A stretch of DNA of 64,000 nucleotides from positions 1 through 64,000 of IMG/VR virus record IMGVR_UViG_3300037067_004901; one strand, given 5' to 3'. Source of the DNA: a virus. Its lineage: Duplodnaviria > Caudoviricetes. Below are positions 588 through 53,654 of the stretch, in pieces. Below the pieces are notes generated by a model. That model searched no databases. It worked only from the letters and a program-made list of their open reading frames with translations, and was not told the origin of the DNA. Position 1 is the first letter of the stretch. Each line of letters starts with the position of its first letter. Both the position numbers and the translations under genes were made by a program.

Positions 588-662
588 TGGCGAATCCGCT
601 AGGATTCGAACCTAGGTGTTTGCTTTTGGAGAGCAACATATTAGCCACTATATGACGGACTC
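588..662 (-). tRNA. tRNA-Trp(CCA)
   Basis: Cloverleaf GAGTCCG/CGGATTC, anticodon arm TTGCT-CTCCAAA-AGCAA, T-loop TTCGAAT, encoded CCA. Confidence 0.92.
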
Positions 663-804
663 TTTCTTGTCTTTATTTTTACATTCTTCACATATATCCC
701 ATTCTACAGTTTTATTTTTATCTGGACAACGACATTGTGTTATTGTCTTTAAACATATTTTACATTTTTTAATAAAGTGCGACATATGTTCCTTTCTGTT
801 TTTT

Positions 805-896
805 TGGCGGAAACTGTAGGATTTGAACCTACGAGCCGATATTAATCGACTAATACGTTAGCAGTGTATCGCCTTCAACCACTCGGCCAAGTTTCC
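805..896 (-). tRNA. tRNA-Ser(GCT)
   Basis: Acceptor GGAAACT, loop CTGCTAA, long variable arm, GCCA end. Confidence 0.92.
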
Positions 897-897
897 A

Positions 898-1116
898 TTA
901 TTTTTCAAAACTATAATTTCTAACCCTATCAGGGTCATAATCTTCATATATAAACGTTTTAATTTTATTGCAAATACAACATTGTTTTTTTATTTTAACT
1001 AAAGCATACCCATTTTTAAATACGTTTTCAGTATTTTTTTTGCATTTAGATTTTCTTTTTAAAACTAATTCTGAATCTAAAATATTATGATAACAATGTA
1101 TTAAATGCATAAACAC
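898..1116 (-). CDS. hypothetical protein
   Basis: ORF filling the gap between tRNAs on the coding strand. Confidence 0.4.
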   Translation of the reverse strand: MFMHLIHCYHNILDSELVLKRKSKCKKNTENVFKNGYALVKIKKQCCICNKIKTFIYEDYDPDRVRNYSFEK

Positions 1117-1124
1117 CTTTTTTT

Positions 1125-1201
1125 TGGTGCGTGCGATAGGACTCGAACCTATAAGAACTTAGTTTTGAGTTAAGTATGTCTGCCAATTGCATCACACACG
1201 C
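1125..1201 (-). tRNA. tRNA-Leu(CAA), short variable loop
   Basis: Loop CTCAAAA, T-arm ATAGG-TTCGAGT-CCTAT, ACCA end. Confidence 0.88.
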
Positions 1202-1202
1202 T

Positions 1203-1289
1203 TGGTGCGCAGGGAGAGAATCGAACTCTCACGTTCTTACGAACACAGGCTTTTAAGACCTATGCGGCTGCCAATTACGCCACCCACGC
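1203..1289 (-). tRNA. tRNA-Leu(TAA)
   Basis: Loop CTTAAAA, long variable arm, ACCA end. Confidence 0.92.
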
Positions 1290-1294
1290 TTATA

Positions 1295-1582
1295 TTATGT
1301 TTTGATTAATGTATTTTTTGCTCGTTCTTCTGCTAATCTATTCTTTAAATCGTCTCTTTGCTTAATTACTTTTTTTAATTCATCTTCTAAATAAATAACT
1401 TGGGATTTTAATTCAGTATTCTCTGGTTCTTTTACACCTTTATATATGAAATCATAAATACGTGCTTTTGCAACTAAAGATTCTTGAAAGAAGCGACCCT
1501 CTCTACTTTGAACTCTTGATAATACTGATAACGCTTGTTCTAATGTTTTTATTGGTGATAATTTACTTTTATTTTCTTCCAT
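1295..1582 (-). CDS. hypothetical coiled-coil protein
   Basis: 95-aa ORF with AAGGAG RBS. Confidence 0.6.
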   Translation of the reverse strand: MEENKSKLSPIKTLEQALSVLSRVQSREGRFFQESLVAKARIYDFIYKGVKEPENTELKSQVIYLEDELKKVIKQRDDLKNRLAEERAKNTLIKT

Positions 1583-1603
1583 TCTTTCTCCTTTTTATTT
1601 AAT

Positions 1604-1688
1604 TGGTGCGGATAGAAAGATTCGAACTTTCACGCCTTACAGCATATGTTTCTAAGACATACGTGGTTGCCAATTACACCATATCCGC
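1604..1688 (-). tRNA. tRNA-Leu(TAG)
   Basis: Anticodon arm TATGT-CTTAGAA-ACATA, long variable arm, ACCA end. Confidence 0.92.
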
Positions 1689-1696
1689 GTAAATTT

Positions 1697-1790
1697 TGGC
1701 GGAAGAGATAGGACTTGCACCTATATGTCTCGTTAAAAGACAGGCAGTTTTCAAGACTGTTCCACGCACTATACTGTGGTCAACTCTTCC
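1697..1790 (-). tRNA. tRNA-Ser(TGA), atypical D-arm and T-loop
   Basis: GGAAGAG/CTCTTCC acceptor, loop CTTGAAA, long variable arm, T-loop TGCAAGT, GCCA end. Confidence 0.8.
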
Positions 1791-1800
1791 TTATATATTT

Positions 1801-1876
1801 TGGCAGATGGGGTAGGATTCGAACCTACACATTACGAATTAACAGTTCGTCTCAATACCAGTTTTGATACCCATCT
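1801..1876 (-). tRNA. tRNA-Asn(GTT)
   Basis: ACGAA-CTGTTAA-TTCGT arm, T-loop TTCGAAT, GCCA end. Confidence 0.92.
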
Positions 1877-1887
1877 ACATTAATATT

Positions 1888-1962
1888 TGGTGCTTGAATC
1901 GAGTGTCGAGTCGAATCTTCTGCGCTTCAAGCAGACGCTCTTACCATTTAAGCTATTCAAGC
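1888..1962 (-). tRNA. tRNA-Phe(GAA), degenerate T-arm
   Basis: GCTTGAA/TTCAAGC acceptor, TCTGC-TTGAAGC-GCAGA arm, ACCA end; T-arm non-canonical. Confidence 0.75.
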
Positions 1963-1963
1963 T

Positions 1964-2041
1964 TGGACGCTAGAGTGAGATTTGAACTCACGATTGTAAC
2001 GTTTTGCAGACGTTTGCAATTGTCCGCTCTGCCATCTAGCG
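1964..2041 (-). tRNA. tRNA-Cys(GCA)
   Basis: AACGT-CTGCAAA-ACGTT arm, U73 discriminator, CCA end. Confidence 0.9.
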
Positions 2042-2044
2042 CAC

Positions 2045-2130
2045 TGGTAGACTGGGCGAGACTTGAACTCACAGTGGATAACTATCCGACAGCTTAAAGG
2101 GCTGTTGCTCTACCATTGAGCGACCAGTCT
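2045..2130 (-). tRNA. tRNA-Lys(TTT) with long variable arm and C33
   Basis: AGACTGG/CCAGTCT acceptor, ACAGC-CCTTTAA-GCTGT arm, extra GGATA-GT-TATCC hairpin, ACCA end. Confidence 0.82.
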
Positions 2131-2317
2131 ATTTTAATTCTTTATATTCTTGCCATAATTTATAATGTTTACAACAACACTCACCATCTATTGATTCAAA
2201 ATAACCATCTTCCGCATCATCTGAACAAGAACAGCAACAATAAATATCTTGCTTTAATTCTTCACATCTACGTTTTTTAAATTCTTCCCAATTTTCGTTA
2301 GACATATAATTTTCCAA
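2129..2317 (-). CDS. hypothetical Cys-rich protein
   Basis: Short ORF with CCCSC and CCC; true start probably the internal MSNE. Confidence 0.4.
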   Translation of the reverse strand: MENYMSNENWEEFKKRRCEELKQDIYCCCSCSDDAEDGYFESIDGECCCKHYKLWQEYKELK

Positions 2318-2355
2318 AACAAAAGAGGCGCATCGTTTTCACTCTGCGCCTCTTT
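2316..2355 (-). terminator. intrinsic terminator (attenuator) upstream of the tRNA array
   Basis: 11-bp stem AAAGAGGCGCA/TGCGCCTCTTT followed by TGTTTT; competing strand CTGCGCCT at 2382-2389. Confidence 0.8.
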
Positions 2356-2378
2356 AATCTGTTTATGTGATATAGTTT

Positions 2379-2498
2379 TTAAGGCGCAGTTCGTTTTAGA
2401 TTTTCAAAATTTATATAGTCTGATACACTCAAAAGCCATGATAAGTGGCGTTTGCTACATAAACTCTTTACTCTAATCTCTTTGCACTTTAAAAACAT
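2379..2498 (-). CDS. putative 39-aa leader peptide MFLKCKEIRVKSLCSKRHLSWLLSVSDYINFENLKRTAP
   Basis: AAAGGA RBS; last codons ACT GCG CCT TAA coincide with the antiterminator strand. Confidence 0.65.
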   Translation of the reverse strand: MFLKCKEIRVKSLCSKRHLSWLLSVSDYINFENLKRTAP

Positions 2499-2512
2499 AT
2501 ATTATCCTTTGC

Positions 2513-2606
2513 TTATATTGGTTCTCTACATGGTTTCATTATACTGGATTTCTGTCATTGAATCTCATACAGGACCTCTCGTTGGTTTATATGGTTGATT
2601 TTTCAT
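2513..2606 (-). promoter_or_regulatory. three coupled micro-ORFs (MKNQPYKPTRGPV, MRFNDRNPV, MKPCREPI)
   Basis: ORFs at 2606-2565, 2568-2539 and 2539-2513, joined by ATGA and TAATG overlaps; AGGA RBS before the first. Confidence 0.55.
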
Positions 2607-2633
2607 ATATTCCTACTATTTAAACATCGTATA

Positions 2634-2662
2634 AGTATATCACATTTTTACCATTTTGTCAA
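2634..2662 (-). promoter_or_regulatory. sigma70 promoter of the leader/tRNA array
   Basis: TTGACA-17-TATACT with extended TG. Confidence 0.8.
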
Positions 2663-2897
2663 GTTTTTTCCCACAATTTCTACAATAATAATCTAATGTG
2701 CTTATTTCTTTTTTGCAATAATCGCATATTGGAAATTTTCTTTTTTCACGTAACATTTTTTTACCATCTTTATGACAAAAATTAGCATACGCAGATTGAT
2801 ACCCGCAACTTGGGCATATTTTGTTATGTTGTGGTAGAAAATATTTTAAATTATATTTTATATCATTAATTATTATTTTTAAAAAATTCATGCTCAT
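2640..2897 (-). CDS. double zinc-ribbon protein
   Basis: CPSC, CHKD, CDYC and CRNC motifs. Confidence 0.65.
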   Translation of the reverse strand: MSMNFLKIIINDIKYNLKYFLPQHNKICPSCGYQSAYANFCHKDGKKMLREKRKFPICDYCKKEISTLDYYCRNCGKKLDKMVKM

Positions 2898-3337
2898 TCC
2901 CTTCTATCTAATTTTTTACCAAAAAACCCGCAACCCCAATTCTGATGCCGATATACACCATCTGTGTTAAACCATGTAATTCTTTTACATGCTGGACACT
3001 CTCGCACCTCCTTCGCGTGACAATTTGGACATTCATCAACACGATACATTTCTTCCCATATACCTAAGTATGGTCTGTTCTTTAATTTTTCTTTTTCTTC
3101 AGCTATTCTTTTGTAGTCTAACGGTATTTCTGTGTTACAAAATGGACATGTTCTCCAAGAAAATTTGTATTCTTTCTTTACTTTTTTCTTTTTCTTGCGA
3201 GCAGAGCCAACACCTTTTTCAGGTATTAATGGGTCGTCTATTTTTGTATGACGTTTTGTAAATTTTCTAGGATGTCCCCAATTTCCACCGGCATACTTCT
3301 TATCTTTATTATTTATACGTCCACGAGAGGCATACAT
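2894..3337 (-). CDS. hypothetical zinc-ribbon protein
   Basis: CPFC, CPNC and CPAC motifs; basic N-terminus. Confidence 0.6.
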   Translation of the reverse strand: MYASRGRINNKDKKYAGGNWGHPRKFTKRHTKIDDPLIPEKGVGSARKKKKKVKKEYKFSWRTCPFCNTEIPLDYKRIAEEKEKLKNRPYLGIWEEMYRVDECPNCHAKEVRECPACKRITWFNTDGVYRHQNWGCGFFGKKLDRRE

Positions 3338-3497
3338 AGTTTTTTTATACCTTTTTTAAGTGGCGCATTATAATATTTCTTTAGATAGGCATCCACTCGT
3401 TTCTTTTCTGCTTTTGTAAAACATAATTCTTGAATATGTTCCTTAACACCAGTTCGTAATCTATTTCTACGTTGTTTTATCAATTCAAAACCCCCTT

Positions 3498-34008: not shown

Positions 34009-34674
34009 TCATTTAGGCTCCTTTGGTATATTAGTAAGAGCAGATGCAAGATAAGTTAAGTATCCTTCTGCGTTTTCAGAATGTGTATTGTGCCATTCTT
34101 TACTTGCTTCCCATAATTTTTTATTTATTTCGGGTCGTGTCATAAACTTCTCTGCCAATTGCTTTTTAAGCTTCTTATACTTTGTATGAACAATTAAGGC
34201 ATAGTCTACTATATGAGTTTTTATTTTAGTCTCTCCTGGACTAACTATATCTAATAGCATTTTAGAAGCATTGTTATATTCATCTAAAAGCAACTCTTTC
34301 TCTTTCTTTTCCTCTAATAGTTGCTTCTTTAGTTCGGCAATTTCTTGTGGCATTTTGTAACCCTTAATAATATTCCTAAGTTCATCTACCACCTCTTTCT
34401 CCACCAACTCTCCCTTTAAGAGTGAGGTAAGGATAGAGAGAGCAAATTTAACCGAACTAAGACGAGGTGGAACTGCCTCATGTTGTGATAATTCAAAATC
34501 CTCGATAGTCTGTTTCAACTGTAATTTTTTGTTTGTATCTATCACTTTATCAGGACATTTTTCACAAGTTTGACCTGCAAGAAGTTGATGATGTTTCTTA
34601 CAATAGTCTTCGGCAAGTTTAATATCTTTCCGATATTTGATGATATGATGTAAACAATTTTCTTGATTTGTCAT
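34009..34674 (-). CDS. hypothetical coiled-coil protein (paralog of 34671..35300)
   Basis: Shared GELV, KQL.EKFMT..EI and ASALT segments. Confidence 0.6.
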   Translation of the reverse strand: MTNQENCLHHIIKYRKDIKLAEDYCKKHHQLLAGQTCEKCPDKVIDTNKKLQLKQTIEDFELSQHEAVPPRLSSVKFALSILTSLLKGELVEKEVVDELRNIIKGYKMPQEIAELKKQLLEEKKEKELLLDEYNNASKMLLDIVSPGETKIKTHIVDYALIVHTKYKKLKKQLAEKFMTRPEINKKLWEASKEWHNTHSENAEGYLTYLASALTNIPKEPK

Positions 34675-35300
34675 TTTTTCTCCTTCGATAGAGATGTTAA
34701 CGCGGATGCAACATCATTCGATACTCTGTCTAATGTTTTTTGGTCGGGTATTAATTCTCCTATACTTATTAATAGCTCATCTTTAACTTTATTTTTAATT
34801 TCATCCAGTGTCATAAACTTCTCTAATAATTGCTTCTCAAAATTTTGATAATGTCTACAATATTTAGGTTTATATACTAAACATTTAGACATAGTTCCTT
34901 CTTCATATTTACATTTATCTTCACAACTAATACAAAGATGATATTGGTTTTCTTCTTTAAGTTTTGCGATTTCTTTTTCCAATTCTTCTACTTTATCATA
35001 TCTCTCTAAAACATCACCTATTTTATGATTTTCGAATATATTTTTATAACGAGAAATTTGTTTCTCCAATTCTTGATTATAAGCAATAGCATCTTTAATG
35101 GCTTGTGAGTGACGTTCGCAACGTTCATTTTTATTAACCAACTCACCATTCATAAATGCGCTAACAATAACGAAAGCAATTTCTTCGTATTTATTTCTTT
35201 CTTCTCCTACTTCACCGATTTCTAAATATCTAGCCGTATCTTTTATTTCTTCATTTGTGAATTGCTTCATATGAATAATTCTCCTTGTTCTATACAACAT
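34671..35300 (-). CDS. hypothetical coiled-coil protein (paralog of 34009..34674)
   Basis: Shared GELV, KQLLEKFMT..EI and ASALT segments. Confidence 0.6.
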   Translation of the reverse strand: MLYRTRRIIHMKQFTNEEIKDTARYLEIGEVGEERNKYEEIAFVIVSAFMNGELVNKNERCERHSQAIKDAIAYNQELEKQISRYKNIFENHKIGDVLERYDKVEELEKEIAKLKEENQYHLCISCEDKCKYEEGTMSKCLVYKPKYCRHYQNFEKQLLEKFMTLDEIKNKVKDELLISIGELIPDQKTLDRVSNDVASALTSLSKEKK

Positions 35301-35326
35301 ACTTTATTGTCCATTTGCTCGATTTC

Positions 35327-35500
35327 TTATTTTGTTATCATCAACAATGTTATAAAGATGCCTATTAAAAGCGAAAATATACTCGCTAACATAAGACGCA
35401 ACATATTTTCTTGTTTTTCGCCTGTTATTATGAGCCAAACAAAAATAGCAGAACAAAACATAAAACCCAAAAGATTTACTGATAGCTTTATAAGATACAT
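35327..35500 (-). CDS. 57-aa two-TM microprotein (absent from the ORF track)
   Basis: MYLIKLSVNLLGFMFCSAIFVWLIITGEKQENMLRLMLASIFSLL...; paralog at 41368..41538. Confidence 0.7.
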   Translation of the reverse strand: MYLIKLSVNLLGFMFCSAIFVWLIITGEKQENMLRLMLASIFSLLIGIFITLLMITK

Positions 35501-35572
35501 TTGCTCGCGCCCTTTCTTATATTAAAAATAAATATAGCTTCGCACTTGATAACCGTAAACTATCATCATAAC

Positions 35573-36025
35573 CTACTGTGTGTTATATCTGTATTGAGTC
35601 TTTGCGCAAGCGTCGCCTAATCTCTTATGACATACTTTGTGCCAACCACTAACACGCTTGTTAACAGCCCATTCTTTCTTGCATTCAGGACATATCGCTA
35701 TGAACTTCTTCGCTGGCTGTATTACTGTTGCGCTATCATACGCTCTGCGCGGGGAACAACCTATTTCAACGCATTTTAATTTAAATATTCTATTATGACC
35801 ATTATAACTACCAACTAAAGCGTGCGCTATCTCGTGAAGTATAACATCAGTAACCGTTTCTTCATTATTCAATTCAACTAAACACGCCGAAAGTGTTATA
35901 GTCTGCGTTCTAAAATGAGCGCAACCAAATCTACGCTTTGCGTTATCAAAACAAAAAGTCCAATCAAGCAGATTATGCTTCTGCATTAACTTTTTTGCCT
36001 TTTTTTCGCAATGCTCAATATTCAT
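35573..36025 (-). CDS. SprT-like zinc metalloprotease
   Basis: AKRRFGC, ILHEIAHAL, H...F, CPEC. Confidence 0.85.
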   Translation of the reverse strand: MNIEHCEKKAKKLMQKHNLLDWTFCFDNAKRRFGCAHFRTQTITLSACLVELNNEETVTDVILHEIAHALVGSYNGHNRIFKLKCVEIGCSPRRAYDSATVIQPAKKFIAICPECKKEWAVNKRVSGWHKVCHKRLGDACAKTQYRYNTQ

Positions 36026-43137: not shown

Positions 43138-43166
43138 TTGACAAGTGTATAGTATTATGATATACT
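43138..43166 (+). promoter_or_regulatory. sigma70 promoter
   Basis: TTGACA-17-TATACT with extended TG. Confidence 0.8.
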
Positions 43167-46569: not shown

Positions 46570-46598
46570 TTGACAAAAACGATTTTATATGATATACT
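46570..46598 (+). promoter_or_regulatory. sigma70 promoter heading the rightward arm
   Basis: TTGACA-17-TATACT with extended TG. Confidence 0.8.
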
Positions 46599-53625: not shown

Positions 53626-53654
53626 TTGACAAAATCACATTTATGTGTTATACT
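53626..53654 (+). promoter_or_regulatory. sigma70 promoter of the Y RNA/Ro60 unit
   Basis: TTGACA-17-TATACT with extended TG. Confidence 0.8.

Follow-up and report, generated by a model that had tools for sequence, protein, structure and literature searches.

Genomic setting of the leader

The phage record that holds this locus is 105.5 kb long, comes from an uncultured phage, has a GC content of 31% and is about 60% complete; its first 64 kb are the stretch of DNA analyzed here, which we call the window. Genes run leftward throughout the first 42 kb, which places the micro-ORF locus on the minus strand. In transcript order, the locus runs from the end of an 85-aa gene through a promoter, three micro-ORFs, a 39-codon ORF, a terminator and a 58-aa ORF to a tRNA array. 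The elements that frame the leader are the following.

2897-2640, minus strand: 85-aa zinc-ribbon gene, which precedes and overlaps the promoter in transcript order
2634..2662, minus strand: promoter TTGACA-N17-TGnTATACT with an extended -10, matching 11 of 12 consensus positions plus the TG
2305-2129, minus strand: 58-aa Cys-rich ORF, downstream of the terminator
2130-588, minus strand: tRNA array of 8-9 genes (Lys, Cys, an extra tRNA found by Rfam only, Asn, three Leu, Ser and Trp)

The putative transcript start lies near 2627. The promoter belongs to a class with seven near-identical copies genome-wide, this one included, which probably represents the early, host-sigma class of the phage. 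A 40-nt stretch of the promoter matches a second copy at 73430-73469.

2662-2634, 11952-11924 and 23533-23505, minus strand: sites of the class TTGACA-N17-TGnTATACT
43138-43166, 46570-46598, 53626-53654 and, in genome coordinates, 73437-73465, plus strand: sites of the same class

Between 23505 and 23300 (minus strand), behind another consensus promoter, a leader with two hairpins extends for about 200 nt, and a ubiquitin-like gene starts at +209. Downstream of the promoter at 43138, more than 200 nt contain hairpins but no credible ORF. The largest non-coding gaps of the genome, 42340-42977 and 43167-43662, sit where gene orientation and GC skew flip, and may be an origin region or encode a non-coding RNA.

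The cargo downstream of the leader, that is the 58-aa ORF and the tRNA array, spans 588..2305 on the minus strand. Because no promoter of the conserved class was found inside the array, expression of the tRNAs appears to depend on read-through of the terminator. A ninth, atypical tRNA of the array (1891-1962, minus strand) scores 50.9 bits with Rfam and is absent from the ARAGORN output. At the gathering score, Rfam 15 finds only tRNAs in the window, and with permissive filters it finds nothing better than E = 0.099 in 2250-2750. Non-coding DNA makes up 7.7% of the phage genome, or 8.1 kb. An alternative genetic code was rejected, since neighboring real genes use TGA stops.

Three overlapping micro-ORFs

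An earlier note on this DNA had described three micro-ORFs, chained by ATGA and TAATG overlaps, that tile the space between the promoter and the leader peptide. They are found exactly as described, on the minus strand, with the sequences and overlaps listed below. Of the roughly 130 nt that separate the promoter (2662-2634) from the 39-codon ORF, they occupy 94 nt, and the proposed layout, from promoter through three chained ORFs and a leader ORF ending in KRTAP-stop to a terminator, is correct.

2499..2628, minus strand: unstructured 5' third of the leader RNA, which contains the micro-ORFs
2565..2606, minus strand: micro-ORF1 (ORF1), 13 codons, MKNQPYKPTRGPV, TGA stop
2539..2568, minus strand: micro-ORF2 (ORF2), 9 codons, MRFNDRNPV, overlapping ORF1 by ATGA
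2513..2539, minus strand: micro-ORF3 (ORF3), 8 codons, MKPCREPI, overlapping ORF2 by TAATG

The start sites differ in strength. As a reference for SD pairing, the median of 98 long ORFs is -6.55 kcal/mol and the median of random ATGs is -1.2 kcal/mol. The SD of ORF1 pairs at -4.2 kcal/mol, and its ATG lies 28 nt past the -10, the first genes behind sister promoters beginning at +32. ORF2 has the SD GAGAGG, which at -7.7 kcal/mol is stronger than that of the median real gene and is equalled by just 4% of random ATGs. Both ORFs have usable SDs located in open RNA. The SD of ORF3 is weak (-2.3 kcal/mol), with 34% of random ATGs equally strong. ATG itself occurs six times in the tract, against 2.4 expected (p = 0.03). 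In view of the SD energies, the start position and the unfolded tract, initiation on ORF1 and ORF2 is likely, and both are probably translated, as far as sequence features can tell; initiation on ORF3 would need coupling. Junctions of the reinitiation type are present between ORF1 and ORF2 (ATGA) and between ORF2 and ORF3 (TAATG), while 14 nt separate ORF3 from the leader ORF, with no overlap.

The RNA that carries these frames has little predicted structure. Positions 2499..2628 fold with an MFE of -15.7 kcal/mol (z = -1.23), and 24 of 200 shuffles fold as well; the central hairpin by itself reaches z = -0.9. No pairing partner for the tract was found in attenuator regions 1-4. A structured non-coding RNA over the micro-ORFs was rejected on this fold (z = -1.2). 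Sensing of the phage's own tRNAs by the micro-ORFs was likewise rejected, as only 7 of their 27 codons are cognate to the downstream tRNAs (p = 0.61). An origin from a decayed gene was also considered: a 36-nt match links the start of ORF1 to the start of a 64-aa gene in the nearest relative found, G001 (MKKQSNKP/MKNQPYKP). The match ends there, and this origin was rejected; the 64-aa protein has no counterpart in this phage genome.

A degenerate 26-nt repeat behind the shared ending

The three micro-ORF stops, at 2565, 2539 and 2513, are spaced by exactly 26 nt, and the sequence between them is organized in the same period.

2590-2565, 2564-2539 and 2538-2513 (together 2513..2590), minus strand: three degenerate 26-nt tandem units, each ending in the core AGAnnnCCnrTATrA

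The core contains a purine-rich, SD-like stretch, a CC and the stop/start overlap, and the in-frame translation of its 15 nt is R-x-P-[VI]-stop, the ending that the three peptides share. Among the 26 columns of the unit, 9 are invariant and 12 are the same in two of three units; pairwise, the units are identical at 11, 16 and 12 of 26 positions, against about 7.4 expected. All nine invariant columns fall within the last 15 of the 26, and none in the other 11 (p ~0.01-0.03). With a constant period, head-to-tail units and identity above background, the tract is a tandem repeat by definition, and it is too degenerate to be called by TRF or by a seed-based finder. The units have also diverged in their junctions. 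Unit 2 has lost the ATGA and has a TAATG overlap 3 nt further on, and it contains a perfect TATAAT; unit 3 has no restart codon.

The period explains the chain. Since 26 equals 27-1 (3x9-1), the stop of each unit is read in the frame set by the ATG of the unit before it, and a triplicated stop/start unit of period 3n-1 therefore produces a chain of short ORFs, each one frame back. Because core and period dictate both, the peptide motif and the relay are one fact, a degenerate repeat, and not two independent coincidences.

How often such arrangements arise by chance depends on which feature is counted. Overlap-coupled chains of at least three micro-ORFs occur 3.7 +/- 2.0 times per random genome (second-order Markov copies), and the same expectation scaled to the 8.1 kb of non-coding DNA, both strands, is about 0.3. 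The micro-ORF chain alone is chance-level in AT-rich phage DNA, and because such chains are expected by chance, no selection is needed for this one once the repeat exists. The core AGAnnnCCnrTATrA has three occurrences in the 105-kb genome, all at this locus, against 0.43 expected. In an unbiased scan, equally spaced triple 15-mers of equal information are found at 0.12 loci per random genome, or about 0.01 when the expectation is confined to the non-coding 7.7%. The triple core, and with it the repeat, is moderately non-random, as judged by repeat and periodicity tests that were framed post hoc and are mutually non-independent.

A probable attenuator around the 39-codon ORF

Downstream of the micro-ORFs, the leader contains a longer ORF and three helices.

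2379..2498, minus strand: 39-codon leader ORF, ending KRTAP-UAA, with the SD AAGGA at 2510-2506
2370..2502, minus strand: helix 1:2, in which the arm 2502-2483 (leader AUG) pairs with the arm 2388-2370 (leader stop)
2344..2389, minus strand: candidate antiterminator 2:3, in which CUGCGCCUU (2389-2381) pairs with GAGGCGCAG (2352-2344)
2316..2355, minus strand: intrinsic terminator 3:4, an 11-bp stem of 2355-2345 with 2332-2322, then a U-tract

Helix 1:2 surrounds the entire 39-codon ORF, and its fold (MFE -33.8 kcal/mol, z = -4.24) was matched by none of 200 shuffles. The candidate antiterminator is a 9-bp pairing of -14.1 kcal/mol (z = -4.1), and the terminator is a perfect 11-nt inverted repeat of -22.3 kcal/mol (z = -6.7). 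The 3' arm of the antiterminator is shared with the 5' arm of the terminator, such that 2:3 pairing blocks the terminator stem. The codons of the leader ORF also match the cargo, with 18 of 38 cognate to the downstream tRNA array against a background of 26.8% (p = 0.005). Taken together, the 1:2, 2:3 and 3:4 elements around the 39-codon ORF look like a leader-peptide attenuator gating the phage tRNA array, and this attenuator is a stronger finding than the micro-ORFs. Computationally, the 39-codon ORF has both alternative helices and cognate codons; the micro-ORFs have neither helix selection nor a bias toward cognate codons.

The SD of the leader ORF pairs at -6.3 kcal/mol, and because this ORF has a good SD of its own, it needs no coupling. 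The stop of ORF3 lies 14 nt before the leader AUG (2498-2496) and 10 nt before the foot of helix 1:2 (2502), with the leader SD located between the ORF3 stop and the leader AUG. Because a ribosome terminating at ORF3 would sit on the leader SD, both hand-off and interference are possible.

Searches for related leaders

Relatives of the locus were sought in several collections, and no homologous leader was found in any of those searched. At the nucleotide level, a blastn search of 2000-3400 against 50,697 phage records gave no match, and an exact search of IMG/VR with a micro-ORF 21-mer and the adjacent tRNA-Lys 22-mer returned nothing. At the protein level, both flanking proteins (58 and 85 aa) form singletons in a set of 5.8 billion protein clusters, and 1.84 billion representatives contain no homologue of the 39-aa ORF; the sole match of this ORF, a repetitive 640-aa protein, reflects summed weak repeats and was rejected as homology. 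A search for related loci with the neighboring 147-aa and 352-aa proteins found no close relative, three more loci with homologues of the 147-aa protein have no leader, and a search of bacterial genomes found no homologue.

The nearest relative found, G001 (IMGVR_UViG_3300014205_000184), has a major capsid protein that is 80% identical. Its 147-aa gene is 57% identical and is followed by different genes, and it has 2 tRNAs and no leader. Synteny between G001 34044-36000 and window positions 3337-588 holds up to the 147-aa gene. Beyond that point, this phage has the 85-aa gene, the leader, the 58-aa gene and the tRNA array, and G001 has an SPFH/band-7-like gene. Because synteny stops there, the tRNA module behaves as an accessory island.

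A degenerate two-unit motif was also used as a query, giving 0 matches in IMG/VR, 6 in JGI metagenomes and 2 in GTDB genomes. All are unrelated and were set aside as coding sequence, true 26-nt tandem repeats or a Clostridium promoter region. The last of these, at 2428-2468 of locus L032 in an uncultured Clostridium MAG (CAYMPG010000019.1), has two 15-nt direct repeats, TAGAATyCCGATATAA, spaced 26 nt apart and overlapping a TTGACA...TATAAT promoter just upstream of a PadR-like gene. These repeats are probably an operator pair and are unrelated to the phage tract, matching it by the degenerate pattern alone. The true multi-copy 26-nt tandem repeats, in sediment and JGI metagenome contigs (L030 4310-4350 and L028 10364-10404), have a unit of approximately GAGACTACCGGTATGACAGTGAGTAC and lie in non-coding DNA of unrelated organisms.

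Proposed origin and alternative explanations

The reading that we favor, with roughly even confidence, is that the micro-ORFs are upstream ORFs born of the repeat, with at most a generic role in ribosome loading or shielding. A degenerate 26-nt triplication, read frame by frame, would yield the three micro-ORFs and would sit at the unstructured start (first 130 nt) of a leader that runs from promoter to terminator and gates the tRNA array. The regulatory decision would be made downstream, by the 39-codon ORF and the mutually exclusive helices 1:2, 2:3 and 3:4. Ribosomes on ORF1 and ORF2 would at most cover the 5' leader, and those finishing the micro-ORFs would do so 14 nt before the leader start, beside the leader SD, in a manner suggestive of generic loading or hand-off and not of a sensor. 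In favor of this by-product reading, structure is confined to the downstream elements (z = -4.2, -4.1 and -6.7, against -1.2 for the tract). Several observations stand against it, however. The clustering of the invariant columns in the core hints at constraint over uniform decay, and the coupling in unit 2 survived sequence change. The SD of ORF2 beats the median real gene, ORF1 begins at the start distance of a first gene, and ATG is in excess in the tract (6 against 2.4). In a genome with just 7.7% non-coding DNA, it would also be unusual for 130 nt to lie idle.

A rival reading is a selected relay, in which ORF1, ORF2 and ORF3 are translated serially by termination-reinitiation and the last ribosome is freed 14 nt before the leader AUG. 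The cell's capacity for initiation, termination and recycling would then steeply govern leader translation, and with it the choice made by the attenuator. We consider such a relay unlikely, though worth keeping in mind. ATGA and TAATG are the overlaps classically used for coupling (PMC6728339), the SDs of ORF1 and ORF2 are usable, with ORF1 at a normal first-gene distance from the promoter, the tract is unstructured, and the leader AUG (2498-2496) is paired in helix 1:2, whose foot at 2502 is 10 nt past the ORF3 stop. Conservation of the core among units, the overlap kept in unit 2 and the ATG excess can be added to these. However, a 3n-1 repeat generates the chain automatically, the chain by itself is chance-level, the SD of ORF3 is weak and unit 3 has no restart, and no homologues were found in the collections searched. 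The independent SD of the leader ORF moreover stays accessible for about 110 nt of further transcription, until region 2 has been made. The fuller version, in which the relay meters ribosomes to the buried leader start such that the tRNA array is switched by the translation state of the host together with its own tRNA supply, appears a shade less likely again. At the other extreme, the micro-ORFs could be pure coincidence, three chance ORFs in AT-rich non-coding DNA with similar ends. Random genomes do contain 3.7 such chains each, 12% of them contain an equally strong spaced triple motif, and TRF calls no repeat here. Against this, the triple-motif expectation within the non-coding 7.7% is about 0.01, and the exact 26-nt spacing, the clustered invariant columns and a YC periodicity (p ~5e-4) point to a real periodic element, which makes coincidence very doubtful.

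That YC periodicity raises a different kind of explanation, a cis-acting nucleic-acid element, in which the tract would be a periodic RNA (less likely DNA) binding platform. Its most concrete form would be a rut-like, Rho-loading YC tract masked by ribosomes on the micro-ORFs; alternatively, another protein could bind the repeated sites, or the units could act as -10-like pause elements. The perfect TATAAT in unit 2 counts in favor of a nucleic-acid element. The primary binding site of Rho has been described by the rule [(YC)N9-13]6 (PMC6144790), and YC dinucleotides in the tract fit it, recurring every 12-14 nt as six to seven dimers with 9-12-nt linkers, with runs of six beginning at 2598 and 2585. 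This spacing arises in 0.05% of region shuffles, the sense strand of the 42-kb arm has 2 such loci against 0.14 expected, and the tract is single-stranded. At 1.07, its C/G ratio is high for this arm (91st percentile, average 0.64), although the tract is not C-rich in absolute terms: with 16 C and 15 G in 94 nt, C makes up just 17%, about as much as G, and there is no clear C>G bubble. The YC spacing is also the same non-randomness as the 26-nt repeat, seen post hoc, and the intrinsic terminator already supplies default termination. Both the spacing of 26 bp, or 2.5 helical turns, and the location, +48 to +114, would be odd for a DNA operator, and no repeated hairpin module is present. On balance, an element of this kind seems improbable. 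A further possibility concerns the peptides themselves. The earlier note had likened their endings to RAGP/RAPP-type arrest motifs and had stated that proline near a stop slows termination. On such a reading, the R-x-P-[VI] ends might stall in the manner of SecM, ApdA and ApdP, or slow termination, and space ribosomes before the attenuator. Arg and Pro two residues apart near the C terminus do recall R-A-P-P and R-A-G-P, the RGP of ORF1 corresponds to the first three residues of RGPP, and Pro accounts for 6 of the 27 micro-ORF codons against a background of 2.7%. However, RAPP-type arrest requires Pro in the A site (PMC10951233), or, in the ApcA variant, a Gly codon there after RAG (PMC10951233, PMC12992588). 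Arg-Ala/Gly-Pro is highly specific for arrest (PMC10951233, PMC12992588): the Arg is irreplaceable and is followed by Ala or Gly, with Ser, Asp and Pro partly tolerated, and then by Pro, the motif being placed in the P site (PMC12992588). The micro-ORFs end in RGP-V, RNP-V and REP-I, with a permitted middle residue in ORF1 alone and N or E in the other two, and the codon after Pro is GTA, GTA or ATA, then the stop, which would bring V or I and neither Pro nor Gly to the A site. The peptides are also just 8-13 residues long. Slow termination of the TnaC, pheL and YbeL type has been linked to proline as the final residue, with Pro-tRNA in the P site at the stop codon (PMC3082878). Each micro-ORF has its Pro one residue earlier, in the penultimate position, and a Pro-stop ending is found just in the 39-codon ORF (TAP-UAA). 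The Pro excess arises because the CC of the repeat is counted in each unit, three times in all. Both parts of the analogy therefore fail, and sensors of this type are highly improbable. From the earlier interpretation, what has been borne out is the layout and the fallback of a degenerate tandem DNA repeat (26-nt period, 11-16 of 26 positions shared pairwise), which we favor, and what has not is the comparison with arrest peptides. It is harder still to credit that the frames encode micropeptides, each 8-13 residues long, with functions of their own. All three frames are open and begin with a start codon, and two have SDs, but they have no homologues in the collections searched, their common part is limited to what the repeat core dictates, no precedent was found for function at such a size in such a context, and the whole module of 85-aa gene, leader and 58-aa gene is a singleton among 5.8 billion protein clusters.

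If the micro-ORFs are indeed by-products of a decayed repeat, the locus would be a cautionary case for AT-rich phage DNA, as a 3n-1 repeat with a stop/start overlap always mimics a chain of coupled micro-ORFs with a shared tail. If instead the relay were true, a second input, general translation capacity, would be added to an attenuator that controls phage tRNA supply, which would bear on how phages respond to host defenses that target tRNAs. As a separate observation, across the whole genome and both strands, tracts of six regularly spaced YC dimers are nearly confined to the antisense strand of each gene arm, where 11 and 15 loci were counted, the sense strands having 2 each. This antisense bias follows GC skew, and such tracts would favor Rho-type silencing of antisense transcripts.

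Comparison with known systems

The resemblance of the micro-ORFs to SecM, ApdA, ApdP and ApcA lies in an Arg and a Pro one residue apart near the C terminus of a small upstream ORF. Unlike in those arrest peptides, V or I takes the place of Pro or Gly in the A site, two of the micro-ORFs have N or E in the middle position, the chains are shorter than tunnel length, and no Sec/YidC or other regulated gene lies directly downstream of the micro-ORFs. With rut tracts, the micro-ORF tract has in common the [(YC)N9-13]6 spacing (PMC6144790) and a single-stranded character, but it is C-poor (17%, with C about equal to G) and has no clear C>G bubble.

Systems with several short or coupled ORFs offer other points of comparison. 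The Salmonella mgtCBR leader contains the short ORFs mgtM and the proline-codon-rich mgtP, each of which governs its own stem-loop choice and answers a defined signal (PMC3641672). As in mgtCBR, several short ORFs, including a proline-codon-rich kind, are found here in one long leader ahead of an attenuation decision; unlike in mgtCBR, the micro-ORF tract has no significant structure (z = -1.2) and its ORFs overlap as a chain. Stop/start overlaps of the ATGA/TGATG type are junctions of termination-reinitiation coupling (PMC6728339; reviewed in PMC12548453). The ATGA and TAATG junctions, and an SD-like stretch within ORF1 ahead of ORF2, resemble those of genes coupled in this way. The known cases are real genes, whereas the micro-ORFs have 8-13 codons and are derived from a repeat, and one of the three junctions here, that after ORF3, has no overlap.

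The closest parallels for the downstream part of the leader are the trpL, hisL and pheL attenuators. As in these, the 39-codon ORF is short, close to its promoter and preceded by an SD, an intrinsic terminator is the last of three mutually exclusive helices, and the leader codons are enriched for the operon's own supply; as in pheL of E. coli, the leader ends in Pro-stop (PMC3082878). The phage leader differs from all three in the extra upstream tract of 94 nt, which looks translated and is unpaired with the switch, and in its cargo, which is a phage tRNA array in place of biosynthetic genes.
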